44,690 nt of DNA from Mycobacteriales bacterium. GTDB lineage: Bacteria; Actinomycetota; Actinomycetes; JALYNC01. Location of the stretch: positions 1 through 44,690 of the forward strand of contig JBPCOB010000133.1 of the NCBI GenBank assembly GCA_051000715.1, written 5' to 3'. Below are positions 1,673 through 20,342 of the stretch, piece after piece (the stretch's first letter is position 1; every line of letters begins with the position of its first letter). Under the pieces are notes generated by a model. It saw nothing but the letters and a program-made list of their open reading frames with translations. It was not told the DNA's origin and did no database searches. The position numbers and the translations under genes are program-made.

Positions 1673-2031
1673 AGGGCCTCAGCGTCGGCCCGGGCTGCGC
1701 GAGCCTCAGCGCGGTAGTTGTGTGCCCAGTCGGCAGAGTCGACCAGGCTTTCCGCACGCAGCTCCTCGGCGGCACCCTCGTAGTCGGAGTTGCAGTTTTC
1801 GGCAGCCGCGTCAGCCACATCCTCGGCGTTGTCGGTGAAAGATTCCGCGGTGGCGTCGCAGGCCACGGCGTAGGCCCGGAGTGCCTTCACTTCATCGGCG
1901 TAGAAGCCGTCGAGGTCGGCATGGCCGGTGAGCCGGTAGCCGCCGTCTTCGGCGTCGAGGAAGATGCCGTGCTGGTCGAAGATGTCGCCGCTGCTGATCT
2001 CGCGGGCGATGGTGAAGAGGTAAGTGCTCAT
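1669..2031 (-). CDS. highly acidic 120-aa hypothetical protein
   Basis: Internal ATG (cat at 2029-2031) preceded by AAGGAG (rc of ctcctt). Begins MSTYLFTIAREISSGD. Roughly a quarter of residues are Asp/Glu. The 201-aa ORF-track version overlaps the upstream gene. Confidence 0.65.
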   Translation of the reverse strand: MSTYLFTIAREISSGDIFDQHGIFLDAEDGGYRLTGHADLDGFYADEVKALRAYAVACDATAESFTDNAEDVADAAAENCNSDYEGAAEELRAESLVDSADWAHNYRAEARAARADAEAL

Positions 2032-2054
2032 CTTGTGCTCCTTGTTTGGTGTTT
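2028..2054 (-). repeat. duplicated translation-initiation region, copy A (matches 2576..2602)
   Basis: tcatcttgtgctccttg is identical (17/17) at 2028-2044 and 2576-2592, then 7 of the next 10 nt match. Each copy contains the start codon plus the AAGGAG RBS of a minus-strand gene. Confidence 0.85.
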
Positions 2055-2066
2055 CGGTCGTGGCGT

Positions 2067-2579
2067 TCATGCCATCACCCGGTCGTACTCGGCGAGGGTC
2101 GCGGCGAGGATCGTGTCCATGTCGAGCCCGGCGCCGCTGGCTGCCGCGCTTGCGTAAACGGCCGCGTTGGTGCCGAGGGCATTGCTGCCCCCGTGCTCGC
2201 CACTCTCGACTGCCACCTGGGCTGCGATGACGGCTTCGCGATCGGCCCCGACCGGGGCGCCGATACGGCTCCACGACTCGCGCTTGGTTGCGTCCTTGGC
2301 GTCACCGCACTCCTCGGCGGTGGCCTCGCCGCGGGTGAAAGCTTCGGCGGTGGAGATGGCGGCCTCGCACACGACCGCGTAGTCGGCGGGCACCAGGTGG
2401 AGCACCTGGCGGGCTGCGCAAGCACCGAGTGCGGTGTCGAGCTTGGCGGCCAGCTTGCGGTTGGAGCGGCCGGCGGGCACTGAGGTGGTTTCGGCGCGGG
2501 CGAGGAGGCCGGCGTCGGTGGCGTGCTTGGCGAGGACTGCGATCACCGGGTGAGTGGTGGTGGTGGCTGTGGTGGTCAT
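2067..2579 (-). CDS. Ala-rich helical hypothetical protein (170 aa), first gene of antisense operon
   Basis: ORF 2067..2579 minus with AAGGAG RBS. The pattern ARQVLHLVP...AISTAEAFTRGEAT..EE faintly resembles helical immunity-type proteins. That resemblance is unverified recollection only. Confidence 0.55.
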   Translation of the reverse strand: MTTTATTTTHPVIAVLAKHATDAGLLARAETTSVPAGRSNRKLAAKLDTALGACAARQVLHLVPADYAVVCEAAISTAEAFTRGEATAEECGDAKDATKRESWSRIGAPVGADREAVIAAQVAVESGEHGGSNALGTNAAVYASAAASGAGLDMDTILAATLAEYDRVMA

Positions 2580-2602
2580 CTTGTGCTCCTTGGCTGGTGT
2601 TC
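2576..2602 (-). repeat. duplicated translation-initiation region, copy B (matches 2028..2054)
   Basis: See copy A. Confidence 0.85.
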
Positions 2603-2615
2603 TTCCGATAGGTAC

Positions 2616-2644
2616 AACTTACCGCGTCCGCAACCCCGTGTCAA
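2616..2644 (-). promoter_or_regulatory. near-consensus sigma-70/SigA-type promoter for the antisense operon
   Basis: The minus strand reads TTGACA (plus 2639-2644), a 17-nt spacer, then TAAGTT (plus 2616-2621, fits TANNNT). It lies about 30 nt upstream of the 2579 start codon. Confidence 0.55.
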
Positions 2645-2685
2645 CACTCTGCGAACAACTTTCTTGAGAATCTTCTGGAGGCATC

Positions 2686-4371
2686 ATGACCCTGCACGCG
2701 CTGACCGCGAACATCCGCGTCGACCTGCCCGACCGGGATGCCGAGACCGAGATCCGCCGCGACCTCGCTTTCGGCCCGGATGTGCTGCTGCTCCAGGAGG
2801 TCGGGGGCCGCGCCGCGGTCTTCGACCGAATTGCCGGCGAGGGCGTCTACGGCGAGGTGCGCTTCGGCCGACAGTCGGGCATCGGGGGCGGGGCGGCTAG
2901 GAACAACGTGATCCTCTACCGCCGGGCACGGCTCGGGCTCACCGACCGGGAGAGCACGTTGCTGCACCGGAGCATCCTCTTCCGGAGCGCGACCCGGTAC
3001 CTGACCTCCGCGCTGTTCCTCGACCAGCAGACCGGGCGACCGGTCCCGGTCAACAACGTGCACATGGTGCCGCACGCCGACACGAGCGCCGGCTGGCTGA
3101 CCAGCTACCCGCGCCGCCGCCTCGTCATCGCCGCGCTCGATGTCATCACCGCGAAGATCGCCGTGCAGAAGGCATCCGGCGCTCTGGTGATCACCGGCGG
3201 CGACTGGAACAACAACGACAAGGCGGACGCCGGTCAGGACAAGGCGAACGTGCAGGCTCGCCTTGGTGCGGTGGGCGCACGCTCCAACTTCGACGTGCTC
3301 GGGACCGCCGCCTACACCGGCACCCACGGCCGCGACTTCTACGACTCGATCTACGTCACCGGCCCGGCGGCGTTCGCCCGGGAGACCGTGCATCCGCGTG
3401 GCCTGTCCGACCATCACGCCGTGTCCGTCTGGCTCGAAGTGGCACCCATCAAGCCCGCACCGGTCCCGGCTGCATCTGTCCCCGTCGTCACACCCGCACC
3501 TACCCCGACCGCCGCACCGAAGGAGCCCCTCATGGCCGCACGCATCGACGGCATCGACTTGTCCCACTGGCAGAGCGGCGCGCTCGACTTCAACGCCGCG
3601 AAGCGCGCCGGCGTCCGCTTCGTGTCCCACAAGGCCTCCGAGGGGACCGACTACCGGGATGCGAAGTACGGGCAGCGTCGCCGTGAATGCGCGGCGGCCG
3701 GTGTCCCGTTCGGTGCCTACCACTTCGCCCGGCCCAGCCGGTCCGGTGGCACCGCACAGGCGAAGTTCTTCCTCTCGGTCGCCGACCCGAAGCCCGGCGA
3801 CCTGCGGCCCATGCTCGACCTCGAAGACCGCGGAGGTCTGTCCATCGGGCCACTGAGCGGATGGGTCGGTGACTTCGTGGCCGAGGTCGTCCGCCAGATC
3901 GGTGTGCCGCCGTTCATCTACACGTCTTTCGACCTGGATGACACTTTCGACTGCCCGCTGTGGGTGGCGCGGTACTCGAACGCCATGTCGGCCCCGCACA
4001 TCCCGGCGCCGTGGAAGCGGTACACCATCTGGCAGTTCTCGGACGGTGTCTACGGTCACCCGTCGACGGTGCCCGGCATCGGTAAGTGCGACATCAACAC
4101 GCTGAACACGTCCGACCCGGCGGCGCTGGTGAAGGCGTTCATCCTCACTGCTCCCGCCGCACCCGAGCCCGCCGTCGTCGAGCCGAAGCCCGCACTGACC
4201 CCCACTCAGGAGCCCACCGTGCCGAACAACCGGATCACCCAGGCCCGCGGCCACCTCGCGACCGCCCTGAAGCTGCTCGACGACGCCCAGAGCATCGAGC
4301 ACCGCACCGGCTGGGTGCGGATCGCCACCGGTGTCATCCGCACCGGCTACAACCGACTCCCCAGGAGCTGA
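2686..4371 (+). CDS. endolysin: N-terminal endonuclease/exonuclease/phosphatase (EEP) domain fused to GH25 muramidase, plus Pro/Ala linker and C-terminal helical region
   Basis: EEP motifs in order: LTANIRV, LLLQEV, NVHMV, GGDWN, LSDHHAV. GH25 motifs: GIDLSHWQ, FVSHKASEGTDYRD, GAYHFARP, MLDLED. GGAGG RBS lies before ATG 2686. Confidence 0.8.
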   Translation: MTLHALTANIRVDLPDRDAETEIRRDLAFGPDVLLLQEVGGRAAVFDRIAGEGVYGEVRFGRQSGIGGGAARNNVILYRRARLGLTDRESTLLHRSILFRSATRYLTSALFLDQQTGRPVPVNNVHMVPHADTSAGWLTSYPRRRLVIAALDVITAKIAVQKASGALVITGGDWNNNDKADAGQDKANVQARLGAVGARSNFDVLGTAAYTGTHGRDFYDSIYVTGPAAFARETVHPRGLSDHHAVSVWLEVAPIKPAPVPAASVPVVTPAPTPTAAPKEPLMAARIDGIDLSHWQSGALDFNAAKRAGVRFVSHKASEGTDYRDAKYGQRRRECAAAGVPFGAYHFARPSRSGGTAQAKFFLSVADPKPGDLRPMLDLEDRGGLSIGPLSGWVGDFVAEVVRQIGVPPFIYTSFDLDDTFDCPLWVARYSNAMSAPHIPAPWKRYTIWQFSDGVYGHPSTVPGIGKCDINTLNTSDPAALVKAFILTAPAAPEPAVVEPKPALTPTQEPTVPNNRITQARGHLATALKLLDDAQSIEHRTGWVRIATGVIRTGYNRLPRS

Positions 4372-4372
4372 C

Positions 4373-4744
4373 ATGACGATCACGGACGTGCAGACCGACG
4401 CCAGGGACGGCACGACCCATCCCTATGGGGTCCGCGTCGGCGACCCAGTCCACTACTGGCGCGCCGACGCCCCTCCGCTGTCGGAGACGTACGAGGCCCC
4501 CGCCTGCTGGCACGGCCTGGTCCTGGGATTCTCCTACGACGATGCGCGCTCGATCTGGCTCGCTGACCTCGTGGTGGTGGACCCTCACGAGGGCTCGCTG
4601 CACCTTGTCCGAGCAGCTCCGCAGTCAGAGTCGACCGCCTCAACCGTGCGCATCGGCGGCGAGTGCGGCGAGCCGTCGTGGGGGGTCGGCGCTTCGTGGC
4701 ATCGACCAATCACGGGCCACCTACGAACCAATCTGAGGAGCTGA
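4373..4744 (+). CDS. hypothetical protein (123 aa) between lysin and holin
   Basis: ATG 4373 follows AGGAG and overlaps the lysin stop region. Same frame as ORF 4331..4744. Confidence 0.6.
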   Translation: MTITDVQTDARDGTTHPYGVRVGDPVHYWRADAPPLSETYEAPACWHGLVLGFSYDDARSIWLADLVVVDPHEGSLHLVRAAPQSESTASTVRIGGECGEPSWGVGASWHRPITGHLRTNLRS

Positions 4745-11280: not shown

Positions 11281-11681
11281 ACAACCACGCGAAGCGCTGC
11301 ATCAAGAACCTCGAAGCGCTCGGCTTCTATCGCGATCACGACGCGCAGACTCGCGGACTCGCCTACCGGCACCCGAACGCCCCCGACCAGGTGCTCAAAG
11401 TGTTCGACCAGATGACGGACTCCACGATCACGTCCGTCATTCGCAAGGCGAACAAGATCGCGGACACCGGCTGGTCCGGCCCACGGCAGCCCGAGACGGT
11501 CAAAGAGCGTGCGCGGGTCACGCACTCCAAGAACAAGTCGCAATGGCAGCGCGAGGACGAGGCGCGCCGAGCACGCGCAGAGGTGGCCGAGCGTGCACAT
11601 GAGGACCGAAGTCGGACCGAAGTCGAGACGGAACATCGCCGCGAAGTTGAAGATCTCATGCAGCCGGGTTACGGCCGATGA
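11277..11681 (+). CDS. hypothetical protein with Arg/Glu-rich C-terminal helix (134 aa)
   Basis: ORF 11277..11681 with ATGA overlaps on both sides. Confidence 0.6.
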   Translation: MNNHAKRCIKNLEALGFYRDHDAQTRGLAYRHPNAPDQVLKVFDQMTDSTITSVIRKANKIADTGWSGPRQPETVKERARVTHSKNKSQWQREDEARRARAEVAERAHEDRSRTEVETEHRREVEDLMQPGYGR

Positions 11682-12604
11682 GCGCCGAGGTCGCCGTCAC
11701 TCCATCGACCGACCTGGCCATCGAGCAGATGGCGCGCATCGACCAGCGCATCGACAGCCATGAGGGCGAAGCACTGCGGGATCGCTGGGAGTTCGGTCGG
11801 CACATGCTCGCCGCACGTGACGGAGCGGGCCGGCTGCCGAACGGCTACCTGTCGGCACTGGTGGGACGCACCGGGAAGAGCCGCGCCGAGTTGAAGTTCA
11901 GGGCACAGTTCGCAGCTACCTACGCCACGGAGGCAGAACTGGCTAACGCGTTAGCCAGTTCCAACTCATGGCGGGGAATCGTCGCAACGCTCAAGAAGGC
12001 CAAGGATGCCGAGGACAACATCATCTCCGCGCCCGAGCCAGCCGCCGGAGGACTGGTCGGGACCATCGTCGCGGACCCGCCGTGGTCGTACGGCAACACG
12101 TCCACCCGTGGTGCCGCCGAGAACCACTACCGGACGATGAGCATTGAGGAGTTGTGCGACCTCGGCGTGGCCCGCGAGCGTGCTGCTGCACAGTCGCATC
12201 TCTATCTCTGGTCCACCGCCGGGCACCTATCCGAAGCCTTCAAGGTGATGGCGGCATGGGGGTTCACCTACAAGACCTATCTCGTCTGGGTCAAGCCGCA
12301 GATGGGGATGGGTAACTACTTCCGAGTCTCCACCGAACTGGTGCTGTTCGGCGTCAAAGGTGGGCTGCGAACCACCGAGCGGAACATCAAGAACTACTTC
12401 ACCGAGCCGCGGCAGAAGCACTCCGCCAAGCCGCTCTCGTTCCAGGACATCGTTGCCAGAACCAGCCCCGGACCCTACCTAGAGCTGTTCGCCCGCTGTC
12501 AGAAAGACGGGCTGTTCGCCGGCTGCCAGAAAGACGGGCTGTTCGCCGGCTGTCTGTGTTCCAAGTGTCGCCTTGGCTGGGAGACGTGGGGGAATCAGTC
12601 ATGA
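11678..12604 (+). CDS. MT-A70 family N6-adenine DNA methyltransferase with ~130-aa N-terminal extension
   Basis: Motifs are IVADPPWSY (DPPW catalytic motif), HLYLW and ELVLFG, with ...YLELFAR...GWETWGNQ at the C-terminus. Confidence 0.8.
   Translation: MSAEVAVTPSTDLAIEQMARIDQRIDSHEGEALRDRWEFGRHMLAARDGAGRLPNGYLSALVGRTGKSRAELKFRAQFAATYATEAELANALASSNSWRGIVATLKKAKDAEDNIISAPEPAAGGLVGTIVADPPWSYGNTSTRGAAENHYRTMSIEELCDLGVARERAAAQSHLYLWSTAGHLSEAFKVMAAWGFTYKTYLVWVKPQMGMGNYFRVSTELVLFGVKGGLRTTERNIKNYFTEPRQKHSAKPLSFQDIVARTSPGPYLELFARCQKDGLFAGCQKDGLFAGCLCSKCRLGWETWGNQS
12495..12548 (+). repeat. 27-bp tandem duplication (2 full units, partial units on both flanks) inside the methylase 3' end
   Basis: gctgtcagaaagacgggctgttcgccg / gctgccagaaagacgggctgttcgccg, with 1 mismatch. 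It encodes CQKDGLFAG twice. Confidence 0.9.
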
Positions 12605-18025: not shown

Positions 18026-18219
18026 GCCGCGCCGAGATCATGGCCGAGGTCGTCGCCCGGCTCGAAGCCGAACGGATGCAGTCGTTGCCGCGACGAATGG
18101 CGCCCGCACAATGCGACCCGGTGCCCGACCTGACACCCGAGCAGCAGGCCGAGAATCTGCGGACGCTCATGGAAGCTACCGGCGGCGAGGCCGACCTGTG
18201 GGCGAGGAGGCGGTTGTGA
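18022..18219 (+). CDS. hypothetical protein (65 aa)
   Basis: ORF 18022..18219 with GTG start. Confidence 0.45.
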   Translation: MSRAEIMAEVVARLEAERMQSLPRRMAPAQCDPVPDLTPEQQAENLRTLMEATGGEADLWARRRL

Positions 18220-19358
18220 ACGCGCCCTATTACGCCGACGAGTCGGTCCAGTTGTACCACGGTGACTGTCTCGACATCCTCCGCTCCGACATTCTCGGCT
18301 ACGAGCACTCTCTCGGCTATTTCCCACCATTGATCCCCGGCAGCAGTATCGATTCGGTAGTCACAGACCCGCCGTACGGGCTGGAGTTCATGGGCAAGGA
18401 GTGGGACGGCGCCAACGGGTTCCGCCGCTCGCTCAACCCGGCCGACGTAGAGCGGGACAACCCATTCGGGCGCACATCGAAGACCTCCCCCGAGTACCGC
18501 GCTGGTCAGACGTTCGGTCTCTGGTGCCTCGCGTGGTCGGAGGAGTGTCTGCGTGTGCTCAAGCCGGGCGGCCACATGCTCGCCTTCGGTGGCACCCGCA
18601 CCAGCCACCGTCTCGCCTGCGCCATCGAGGACGCCGGCTTCGAGATCCGCGACAGCATCGCCTACTTACACGCCACTGGAGGTCAGCAAACCGATATACT
18701 TACCGAGTGGAGAAAGTGGACTGTAAGTACGAGATATGCGGGGGTCAGATTCTCGGACGCGCCGCCCGGCGGTTCTGCTCCCGAGCCTGTTCTGCTCGCA
18801 ACCAGTCTCGAAAACTCACCTGCGTCTGCAATCATTGCGGGACTCAATTCCAACGAAGCCCGTCACACCGACGCGGACAACTGGCGTTCTGCTCTGTCGA
18901 GTGCCGGCGCCAGTACTACGGCGTCGAAGGCCCTTGTGACCATTGCGGGACATCCACCAGGAAGCCGAGGTCCAACACCGGATACAACGGCTTCTTCTGC
19001 TCACAGCGGTGCATGGGACTGGCTCGACGCAAACATCATGGCCAGACTCAAGGCCGGAACAGCCCTGAGGATATGGCTTGGAAGCAAGCCATCTACAAAG
19101 CCGGCGGCTACCGCTGCGCTGTGTGCGGCACTGACCGACGACTTGAAGCTCATCACGTGCGCTCAGTCCGAGACTTTCCAGAGCTACGACACGACCTCTC
19201 AAATGGTGTGTGTCTCTGCCACGACTGTCACTACTACGGCGTACACGGCGGCGCACCTAATTTCATTCACGGCCGCTACTCTCGCAAGCCAGGGGGGTGA
19301 TGCCACGGAAAGTCAGTCCGGTCCCCTCGCATGGGTCTACGGATCTGGCTTTCCGTGA
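18216..19358 (+). CDS. N4/N6 DNA methyltransferase (beta-class order), N-terminal fragment: catalytic DPPY half, 669-nt foreign insert read through in frame, then WVYGSGFP and a TGA
   Basis: GTG 18216 follows GAGGAGG. Motifs are VVTDPPYGLEFMGKEWD, LAFGGTRT and AIEDAGFEIRDSIA (ends 18662). The insert spans 18663-19331. WVYGSGFP is at 19332-19355 and the stop at 19356-19358. Confidence 0.65.
   Translation: MNAPYYADESVQLYHGDCLDILRSDILGYEHSLGYFPPLIPGSSIDSVVTDPPYGLEFMGKEWDGANGFRRSLNPADVERDNPFGRTSKTSPEYRAGQTFGLWCLAWSEECLRVLKPGGHMLAFGGTRTSHRLACAIEDAGFEIRDSIAYLHATGGQQTDILTEWRKWTVSTRYAGVRFSDAPPGGSAPEPVLLATSLENSPASAIIAGLNSNEARHTDADNWRSALSSAGASTTASKALVTIAGHPPGSRGPTPDTTASSAHSGAWDWLDANIMARLKAGTALRIWLGSKPSTKPAATAALCAALTDDLKLITCAQSETFQSYDTTSQMVCVSATTVTTTAYTAAHLISFTAATLASQGGDATESQSGPLAWVYGSGFP
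18663..19331 (+). mobile_element. HNH homing-endonuclease cassette inserted in the methyltransferase gene
   Basis: A 669-nt block interrupts the conserved segment ...EIRDSIA | WVYGSGFP.... By my count the first 80 nt are ~49 percent G+C, against roughly two-thirds elsewhere by eye. It carries an HNH ORF in another frame. Confidence 0.65.
18707..19300 (+). CDS. HNH endonuclease with three N-terminal CxxC...FCSxxC zinc-ribbon repeats
   Basis: Frame of ORF 18401..19300, with GTG starts at 18707 or 18716. Repeats are CKYEICGG..FCSRAC, CVCNHCG..FCSVEC and CDHCG..FCSQRC. The HNH motif is YRCAVCG..LEAHH...NGVCLCHDCH. Confidence 0.7.
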   Translation: MEKVDCKYEICGGQILGRAARRFCSRACSARNQSRKLTCVCNHCGTQFQRSPSHRRGQLAFCSVECRRQYYGVEGPCDHCGTSTRKPRSNTGYNGFFCSQRCMGLARRKHHGQTQGRNSPEDMAWKQAIYKAGGYRCAVCGTDRRLEAHHVRSVRDFPELRHDLSNGVCLCHDCHYYGVHGGAPNFIHGRYSRKPGG

Positions 19359-19370
19359 AAGTCGAAGTCG

Positions 19371-20342
19371 TTGGACGTGGGCCGGGCGATCGACAAGGCG
19401 GCGGGGGTTGAGCGGGAGGTCGTGGGGCAACGCGTTGCTACTGGGACTGCTCGCAAGTCCACGACTCACACCGGCATCGGCGCAGCGGTAAGCAACAAGG
19501 CCGAACCGCGTGACTACATCGACACGGTTGTCAACCTGACCGCCCCTGCCACCCCCGACGCCGAACGCTGGCAGGGCTGGGGCACTGCGCTGAAGCCCGC
19601 CCACGAGCCGATCGTGGTCGCCCGGAAGCCGCTGTCCGGGAACGTCGCCGCGAACGTGCTGGCGCACGGGACCGGGGCGCTGAACATCGACGGGTGCCGG
19701 GTGGCTGGCGACGAGGACGGGTCGCGTAACCGGCCCGCATCGCGGCTCGGGAGCAGTGACACCTACGCGCAGGACGAGTGGACACGCACCGCCGTTGTCG
19801 AACGGCAGGACACGACAGGCAAAGGTCGCTGGCCCGCGAACGTGGTCCTCGACGAGTCGCAGGCAGCGGTGCTCGATGCGATGAGCGGACAGACTCGCTC
19901 GTCGGGCTTCTTCACGTTTGGCGAGGGCGATTTCAACGGCCCCGCCTCGGTCAACATAAACCGCGAGGGTTACACCTCAGGCCAGTATGACGACCAAGGT
20001 GGCGCATCCCGATTCTTCTACGTCGCCAAGGCCGGCGCCTCAGAGCGACCCCGCGTCAACGGAATCAGTCACCCGACGACAAAACCTCTGACCCTCATGC
20101 GGTACCTCGCGCGACTCGTCACCCCACCCGGCGGCACGGTTCTCGAACCCTTCGCGGGCAGCGGAACCACCGTCGAGGCGTGCATCCTCGAAGGCTTCCG
20201 GTGCATCGCCATCGAGCGCGAGGCCGACTACCTGCCGTTGATCGTGCAGCGCATCACTCGACGCCGCGACCCCGTGGCTGCCGTGAAGTCGGCGGGCACT
20301 GACGGCGGACTGTTCGACCTACTCGACGGCGGTGTCGCCTGA
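19371..20342 (+). CDS. N4/N6 DNA methyltransferase, C-terminal fragment (target-recognition region plus AdoMet-binding FxGxG half)
   Basis: Same frame as 18216..19358. Motifs are LDVGRAIDKAAGVEREVVG, WQGWGTALKPAHEPIVVARKP, GRWPANV, HPTTKPL and VLEPFAGSGTT. The only starts are TTG 19371 or GTG 19377, and no clear RBS is present. Confidence 0.6.
   Translation: MDVGRAIDKAAGVEREVVGQRVATGTARKSTTHTGIGAAVSNKAEPRDYIDTVVNLTAPATPDAERWQGWGTALKPAHEPIVVARKPLSGNVAANVLAHGTGALNIDGCRVAGDEDGSRNRPASRLGSSDTYAQDEWTRTAVVERQDTTGKGRWPANVVLDESQAAVLDAMSGQTRSSGFFTFGEGDFNGPASVNINREGYTSGQYDDQGGASRFFYVAKAGASERPRVNGISHPTTKPLTLMRYLARLVTPPGGTVLEPFAGSGTTVEACILEGFRCIAIEREADYLPLIVQRITRRRDPVAAVKSAGTDGGLFDLLDGGVA

Follow-up and report, generated by a model that had tools for sequence, protein, structure and literature searches.

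How can an endonuclease gene of the homing type sit within a catalytic motif of a DNA methylase, with neither an intron nor an intein to carry it? To our knowledge, homing endonucleases have been thought to persist in conserved genes only by means of self-splicing introns or inteins. The question is raised by a 44,690-nucleotide (nt) stretch of DNA from a Mycobacteriales bacterium (GenBank assembly GCA_051000715.1, contig JBPCOB010000133.1, positions 1 to 44,690), which we refer to as the window. A beta-class N6/N4 DNA methylase gene of phage type (18216-20342, plus strand) is broken there after ...EIRDSIA by an insertion that contains, in another frame, an open reading frame (ORF) for an HNH endonuclease. 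On comparative grounds we consider it probable that the HNH gene is a selfish one of the homing type, lying out of frame within a methylase insertion of the kind described as the ShiLan domain, and that the methylase is read through the insertion and encoded as two ORFs.

The N part of the methylase (18216-18662, plus strand) extends from motif IV (DPPY) through EIRDSIA and matches Pfam PF01555, N6_N4_Mtase (1.7e-9, profile positions 1-80). Its ORF starts at GTG 18216, with a Shine-Dalgarno sequence, GAGGAGG (18204-18210), 5 nt upstream, and the start overlaps the stop of the preceding ORF as GTGA. The methylase frame ends as ...AIEDAGFEIRDSIA at 18662, where an insertion of 669 nt begins (18663-19331, plus strand) that stays open in the methylase frame over its 223 codons; intact motif VIII, WVYGSGFP, follows at 19332-19355. 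The G+C content is 50% at 18663-18710 and 58.9% over the whole insert, compared with 65 to 68% in the flanks and 67% in the window. The closest uninterrupted homologue, P0039 (452 amino acids; N part 70% identical), is contiguous across the site (..EIRDSIAWLYSQGFPKSLDVSKAIDRAAGAERE..), as is the consensus of 75 homologous sequences (EIRDSIA|W.YGSGFPKS; EIRDSIAWLYGSGFPKSLDVSKAIDKAAGAEREV); an insert-free P0039-like allele reads ...EIRDSIAWLYSQGFPKSLDV..., and in StevieRay the N and C matches of the methylase abut at the site. None of the uninterrupted homologues has a native variable domain at the insertion position. Most of 7833 methylase matches appear uninterrupted, and the insert is present in only 77 clusters (50% identity). 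A sequence-only reading of the window had placed the break at 18662, had taken the two methylase blocks to be contiguous as a rule, and had described an HNH protein of ~197 residues with three zinc ribbons in another frame (18707-19300), flanked by 44 and 31 nt, in an insert whose 5' end had ~49% G+C against about two-thirds elsewhere; on each of these points our analysis agrees with it.

The HNH ORF (18707-19300, plus strand) encodes 197 amino acids from a GTG start, in the +2 frame relative to the methylase; it lies wholly within the N-terminal ORF of the methylase and fills nearly the entire insert, with 44 nt (5') and 31 nt (3') of insert sequence outside it. Three CxxC...FCSxxC zinc ribbons are followed by a C-terminal nuclease core, CxxC..EAHH..NG.C.CH.CH. 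The product matches Pfam HNH_2 (8.8e-6), Pfam HNH (8.4e-5), and the HNH endonuclease family phrog_1271 (2.7e-21), and it keeps all the invariant Cys and His residues of its own family. That family comprised 14 clusters in a search of 5.8 billion proteins. We assembled ~40 loci with DNA context, Escherichia phage BUCT618 included, in which the HNH frame is conserved (the match to the HNH core being only weak in L031 and L049), and in nearly all of them the HNH ORF lies inside, or between the halves of, an N6_N4 methylase. BUCT618 (L001, OM735461.1) alone carries this HNH family among 50,697 phage records; its 620-residue "site-specific DNA-methyltransferase" (1974-3836) hides an unannotated HNH ORF of 201 amino acids in the +2 frame (2387-2992), through which the methylase frame stays open at ~50% G+C. 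The window's HNH protein is 72% identical to this one and 66 to 79% identical to those of its relatives of the same architecture. The spread of the family is patchy: the methylases are only 30 to 45% identical and come from actinophage, E. coli phage, and low-GC viral contigs.

Three architectures were found among the relatives. In type 1, a single continuous methylase ORF encloses an HNH ORF of the same orientation; the insert is ~15 codons downstream of the window's site (...W.YGSGFPKS.DVSKQIDQQ...[HNH]...TLKS|KAIDKAAGAEREVVG). In type 2, to which the window belongs, the insert precedes motif VIII and a stop directly follows that motif; insert G+C is lower than flank G+C in every type-2 locus. 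In type 3, the HNH ORF runs antisense to two methylase ORFs that lie on either side of it, without overlap of host coding sequence (L005, L006, L013, and L046-L048).

The insert bears no recognizable mark of an intron or intein. A scan of both strands of 18300-19700 with all 4227 Rfam 15 families gave no match at E<=10, and RNA folding of the HNH-start and TGA-junction regions against shuffled sequence gave no signal (z-scores of -1.5 and +1.2). Pfam found no Hint or intein domain in the host-frame product, N6_N4_Mtase being the sole family, and the termini are not those of an intein, since the insert begins YLH, ends PLA, and is followed by W at the +1 position. The earlier judgment that the cassette resembles neither an intron nor an intein is thus upheld by the covariance models and by the domain search alike. 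Sliding nucleotide identity among the type-2 loci showed no sharp element boundary.

The insert opens with a degenerate copy of the motif that it displaces: AYLHATGG (18660-18683, plus strand) is identical to AWVYGSGF at 12 of 24 nt, where chance gives a mean of 6.2 with a standard deviation of 2.1. This resemblance had been noticed from the window alone and counted as 13 of 24; the count was one too high, and the likeness itself stands, with the relatives in agreement. Their inserts start A-[YWHR]-[LMFA]-[HYR], for example, AWMHTTGG and AWAYAPTP, and after EIRDxIA the type-2 relatives open with a decayed W-V-Y-like motif (YLH, WMH, WAY, WLR, or HLH). The type-1 equivalent of this 5' target copy is SKQIDQQ, compared with SKAIDKA. 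A diverged copy of the target may, as that earlier reading proposed, serve to guard the site against self-cleavage.

In all nested relatives that are intact, the two methylase parts are in one frame with the HNH ORF at +2, with the qualification that the C part in type 2 restarts in frame 0, +1, or +2 after the stop. The methylase frame has no stops over ~200 to 230 codons in 19 type-1 loci (G+C 31 to 64%) and six type-2 loci, counts that overstate independence because the loci share descent. Synonymous-codon shuffles of the HNH ORF gave an expectation of 1.5 to 3.4 stops per locus, with per-locus P values of 0.007 to 0.13; so few are predicted because the host frame uses positions 2, 3, and 1' of the HNH codons and the HNH protein is poor in hydrophobic residues. 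The open frame at 31% G+C, which might have been taken as decisive by itself, was given less weight on that account. Since the HNH sequence alone predicts so few stops, we took the antisense homologues as a control: in three of these, which are not nested, the corresponding frame is broken by 5, 11, and 6 stops. Third-position identity at matched first- and second-position divergence is 0.55 to 0.57 for nested pairs and 0.38 to 0.45 for antisense pairs, an excess that is suggestive, not decisive, of extra constraint on the nested pairs. Judged by the stop counts (0 versus 5 to 11), we conclude that the host frame is selected to stay open. Among type-2 loci, amino acid identity is 64 to 80% in the HNH frame, 50 to 69% in the methylase frame of the same DNA, and 48 to 59% in the C part.

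The peptide read from the insert in the methylase frame recurs in the 77 clusters, mostly in proteins of ~400 to 900 amino acids. It matched no Pfam or PHROG family and, by Foldseek, no fold in the PDB. AlphaFold predicted the peptide alone to be mostly disordered, with a helical C-terminal third (predicted local distance difference test [pLDDT] score of 61 to 80). Two findings, the gap of 669 nt and the selection for an open host frame, led us to reject a ribosomal bypass in the style of T4 gene 60.

The first methylase ORF (18216-19358, plus strand; 380 amino acids) is made up of the N part, the 223 insert codons, motif VIII as its final 8 codons, and a TGA stop. The sequence-only reading had the 223 stop-free codons translated into the N-terminal half of the methylase; the insert is indeed open, but the TGA at 19356-19358, right after WVYGSGFP, had been overlooked. 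Because of this in-frame TGA, the methylase frame does not continue into the C-terminal part. The TGA, which is contained in a GTGA (19355-19358), and the AAG TCG after it (together 19356-19364, plus strand) make up 9 nt without counterpart in uninterrupted homologues (GFP|KSLDV); the sequence then resumes as KSLDVGRAIDKAAGVEREVVG... (KSLDVGRAIDK) and runs to a stop at 20342. The C-terminal ORF (19371-20342, plus strand) is intact over 323 amino acids, matches Pfam PF01555 (3.6e-15, profile positions 152-220) and the DNA methyltransferase family phrog_3008 (9.6e-52), and contains motifs X and I-III (EPFAGSGTT) together with the target-recognition region. The solved structures nearest to an uninterrupted homologue are those of the beta-class enzymes CcrM (6PBD) and M.RsrI (1EG2). 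Compared with P0039, P0045, and P0070, the window's methylase is longer by ~14 residues (18270-18335; ..RSDILGYEHSLGYFPPLIPGSS..) in the stretch that links the first beta strand to DPPY.

The stop is a conserved feature of this sublineage. Nine relatives (P0015-P0023) are 50 to 62% identical to the 380-residue product over 73 to 99% of its length (97 to 99% in eight of them), and all nine end ...GGDA.E...GPLAW[VI]YGSGFP-stop, so that PLAW[VI]YGSGFP is kept in 10 of 10 type-2 sequences. The sole continuous relative, P0135 (784 amino acids), has Arg in place of the stop. DNA sequence was available for five type-2 relatives (L032, L035, L037, L038, and L041); in these the TGA comes directly after GFP, and the C-terminal ORFs are intact, with ~260 amino acids or more. 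The frame of the C part after the stop is 0 in the window, L032, and L035, +1 in L037, and +2 in L038 and L041. In the latter two, the GTG of the GTGA overlap is the start of the C-terminal ORF and gives M-KSK... L038 and L041 read GTGAAG at this point and the window GTGAAAG, with one A more, which puts the window's C part in frame 0, with the likely start at TTG 19371 or GTG 19377. Readthrough of the TGA, selenocysteine, or frameshifting as a general means of joining the two parts was rejected, given that the C part is in differing frames among the relatives. The same variation in frame points to independent reinitiation of the second ORF; the sequences thus argue for a C part begun by separate initiation and for a conserved two-ORF methylase.

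How might an ORF buried in this way be expressed? We aligned the 25 to 30 nt upstream of the HNH start from 28 loci. A TANNNT hexamer lies 6 nt (once 7 nt) before the start in 14 of the 28, compared with 0.72 expected, the antisense-class loci L005 and L013 included. It reads TATAAT in seven type-1 and two antisense loci, TATACT in the window (18695-18700, plus strand), L032, and L041, and TATGCT in L037; five further loci have near-matches at the same position (CATAAT, TGTAAT, or AATACT). A scan for two-hexamer sigma-70 promoters found nothing, and the -10-only signal surfaced in the comparative alignment alone. A -10 element at such spacing is the promoter geometry of leaderless mRNA, which is established in actinobacteria. 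The hexamer, as a putative leaderless promoter, suggests that the HNH protein is made from a leaderless transcript, and the low G+C content of the 5' end of the insert may be put down to the -10 box. Fusion of the methylase N part to the HNH protein by frameshifting was also considered and rejected: although the window's HNH frame has no stop as far upstream as 18266, low-GC relatives stop right before the HNH ATG. In L012 (~520-545) and L042 (~1340-1360), a one-base change of frame at a poly-A run joins the methylase N part to HNH in frame (P0004, 339 amino acids) or puts the N part out of frame; these changes, which could be real variants, are probably indels or homopolymer sequencing errors.

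Hidden, out-of-frame HNH genes in mycobacteriophage methylases have been published before (PMC9957025, Gosselin et al. 2023; PMC11855218, Arsenault, Gosselin, and Gogarten 2025, Genes 16:178). In Mycobacterium phage ShiLan and its relatives, the gp65 methylase is interrupted in frame by 202 residues, the ShiLan domain, which hides a 195-residue HNH in the third frame, has no features of an intron or intein, including negative results with RNAweasel and MFannot, and shows a distribution that indicates homing (PMC11855218). Its first 11 residues mimic the 11 residues past the insertion site, and its authors left open how the HNH is translated, suggesting leaderless initiation (PMC11855218). The window's insertion is like it in many respects. 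The host family is the same, gp65 matching the window's DPPY region and aligning along the whole methylase; the insert is of ~200 codons, a multiple of three, without a host-frame stop; the HNH ORF is in the same relative frame and fills nearly all of the insert; and CxxC...[FY]CSxxC zinc ribbons, a 5' mimic, the lack of an intron or intein signature, and a patchy distribution are common to both. The two differ in site, the ShiLan domain lying at ALKPSYEP|..|TAFEPIVVARKP, ~95 residues downstream, whereas the window's site is motif VIII. They differ also in the nuclease, which is ribbon-HNH-ribbon in ShiLan, as opposed to three ribbons and then the HNH core; a tblastn comparison of the two gave a weak zinc-ribbon match (E=0.014). 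The ShiLan methylase ORF is continuous, unlike the window's, which is closed by the conserved TGA 8 codons past the insert, and the window's HNH family is not confined to actinophages, occurring also in E. coli phage BUCT618 and in low-GC contigs. By sequence and layout, then, we take the window's element to be of the same kind as the ShiLan domain, with a different HNH family and site and a split host gene.

Other known arrangements share parts of this layout. ShiLan gp65 also has an intein, at AWLYG|SGFPKS, 4 codons from the window's junction and so in the same hot spot. In another, intein-borne case the endonuclease is likewise in frame 3 of an open host frame, but its carrier is a splicing intein. 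The window's insert differs from that case, from the ShiLan intein, and from intron-encoded HNH enzymes such as I-HmuI in having no splicing machinery; the ShiLan intein and the intron-encoded enzymes presumably spread by homing as well. Free-standing homing endonucleases are known to split phage genes, as do mobE in nrdA of Aeromonas phage Aeh1 and mobA with T4 genes 39/60. Such splits leave two host ORFs whose products must assemble; no splicing is involved, and the endonuclease has expression signals of its own. The halves of the window's methylase resemble these in having their own stop and start (the TGA at 19356 and the restart of the C part). In mobE and mobA, however, the endonuclease ORF is between the halves without overlap, whereas the window's HNH ORF is nested in the ORF of the first half, and the split is 56 nt downstream of the HNH stop. 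Pacc40 gp60 represents a second, unrelated out-of-frame nuclease ORF in an in-frame methylase insertion, and free-standing homologues of that nuclease adjoin the methylase in other phages (PMC11855218). By description, not by sequence comparison, it differs from the window in methylase family, nuclease, and site; its free-standing homologues parallel the antisense and free-standing relatives of the window's family (L005, L006, L013, and L046-L048).

These results are consistent with the following course of events. The insert is probably retained in both the RNA and the protein. Ribosomes translating the methylase would pass straight through it, its length being a multiple of three with no host-frame stop, and would make a largely disordered peptide and then the real motif VIII. 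In type 2, the TGA after motif VIII would end the first polypeptide, and the C-terminal part, with the recognition domain and the S-adenosylmethionine-binding motifs, would be a second ORF reinitiated a few nucleotides downstream; with one ORF ended by the TGA and the other begun anew, the methylase would be encoded as two subunits. The HNH protein would be made independently from GTG 18707, most likely from its own leaderless transcript starting at TATACT. It presumably cuts uninterrupted alleles at or near the coding sequence of motif VIII, and repair would then copy the element in. Indirect evidence for active homing comes from the patchy distribution, from an HNH sequence better conserved than the host gene, and from the deviant G+C content.

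Several observations weigh against this explanation, and part of them would suit a methylase that is dead, disrupted by a free-standing HNH gene, with the TGA as a lesion and the open frame as a relic or a product of chance. The in-frame TGA is itself one of them. In the window, translation begun at the GTGA would not enter the C part in frame, and TTG 19371 and GTG 19377 are preceded only by a weak Shine-Dalgarno sequence, GAAAG. The window alone is not significant as to its open frame, shuffles giving zero stops 13% of the time (P=0.13), and we therefore drew the significance from the relatives, with their shared descent. In type 1, the bases of the -10 hexamer also encode conserved residues of the methylase frame. 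AlphaFold modeled the core of an artificial fusion of the N and C parts confidently and did not place motif VIII, which together with the junction (residues 360-445) had a pLDDT of <50; the model does not show active folding of a read-through protein. Decayed copies occur elsewhere, with truncated methylases in L008-L010 and two stops in L011, and the methylase is dispensable in related phages (PMC11855218). Against a dead gene stand the two halves, which are intact ORFs with all their motifs, and the nine relatives, which at 50 to 62% identity keep the open frame, PLAW[VI]YGSGFP, and the position of the stop. Independent decay would not be expected to leave frame, motif, and stop in common among nine relatives, with intact C-terminal ORFs where the DNA is known, and we regard this alternative as unlikely.

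Removal of the insert by a reduced or novel self-splicing element, be it a ribozyme overlapping the HNH ORF or an unconventional intein, appears to us scarcely credible. Homing endonuclease genes in conserved motifs do usually ride on introns or inteins, a true intein occurs 4 codons away in ShiLan gp65 (WLYG|SGFPKS), and a 5' mimic of the 3' exon recalls group I internal-guide pairing (PMC11855218). Yet Rfam offered no match at E<=10, just 44 and 31 nt lie outside the ORF, the folding z-scores were -1.5 and +1.2, intein termini and domains are lacking, and the ShiLan analogue was negative in RNAweasel and MFannot (PMC11855218). A host frame selected to be open in ~25 loci would moreover be pointless if the RNA were spliced, and some relatives at the same site are in antisense orientation. 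Nearly as improbable is domestication, in which the HNH protein would form a compact restriction-modification-like or antidefense module with the methylase and not be selfish. The strict tie of the HNH family to this methylase family in ~40 loci would fit such a module, nesting guarantees coinheritance, and co-option has been raised for the published elements (PMC11855218). Most of the 7833 homologous methylase matches, however, appear to be without the insert, as against 77 clusters with it; decayed copies occur; the insert splits a catalytic motif and deviates in G+C content from its host; and three architectures in both orientations are typical of invasion, not of a fixed operon.

A selfish, out-of-frame HNH gene in a translated insertion, which we prefer, bears on how such genes persist. 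The hidden-HNH elements suggest a third route beside introns and inteins, in which the insertion is translated through and tolerated. Beyond the 2025 report, the window and its relatives add an independent HNH family at another site, in a catalytic motif; comparative evidence for selection on the open frame; a conserved split-gene variant; a wide taxonomic spread; and a candidate leaderless promoter, by which the expression of the hidden gene could be explained in a testable way. A more far-reaching proposal, which we put forward tentatively and would not expect to hold in full, is that of a true dual-coding mobile gene that lives inside a catalytic motif without splicing by virtue of three conserved devices jointly: a selected read-through peptide with a replacement motif VIII, a stop and restart that yield a two-subunit enzyme, and an internal -10 element that gives a leaderless HNH mRNA. 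If it were true, two frames would be read from different transcripts, in a family spread across phyla, among actinophages, E. coli phages, and low-GC phages; the published description concerns mycobacteriophages only. Gene callers miss nested ORFs of this kind, the HNH protein being on record in 14 clusters and the read-through peptide in 77.

Some relatives show further rearrangements of the methylase. In the antisense class (L005, L006/L007, L013, and L046-L048), the N fragment has a conserved tail, ..EREK.IK.AL..G..NVVWS.DHE*, and the C fragment a conserved head, I.I..DG..I......GTF.KP.YL.GA.R, both kept although the host methylases are very different. After E[IL]RD, L005 (reverse complement, 1255-1884) has a duplicated motif-VIII-like stretch, TYFHDASF...(28 amino acids)...LHWVYGSGFPKS, and L009 (frame 0, first ~40 codons) a short one, GYAYDGGGAPLLAYCFGVGFPKS; these duplications may have been left behind by a former insertion at the site used in the window. 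L003 (Totinger gp66) has two in-frame insertions (951-1274 and 1812-2384), the second at the ShiLan-domain site. Near the methylase C terminus, L004 (Seagreen) carries an antisense vsr-like endonuclease (1969-2766, minus strand) whose zinc ribbon weakly matches that of the window's HNH protein, and L002 (StevieRay) has a small split (1997-2185). In L032, the closest type-2 relative, genes for Endonuclease_7 and a C5 DNA methylase come directly after the split methylase (2548-4385).

As to the rest of the window, megablast against the 50,697 phage records found no close DNA relative; the sole matches were terminase and portal segments at 72 to 84% identity to Arthrobacter and Gordonia phages, and the window probably belongs to an actinophage or prophage not yet in culture. 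Besides the split gene there is another DNA methyltransferase gene (11678-12604, plus strand), whose product falls in the MT-A70 family (Pfam, 6.3e-15). In a 561-residue protein (2686-4371, plus strand), an Exo_endo_phos domain (2.8e-7) is joined to a lysozyme domain of glycoside hydrolase family 25 (4.7e-31), an unusual architecture for a lysin.

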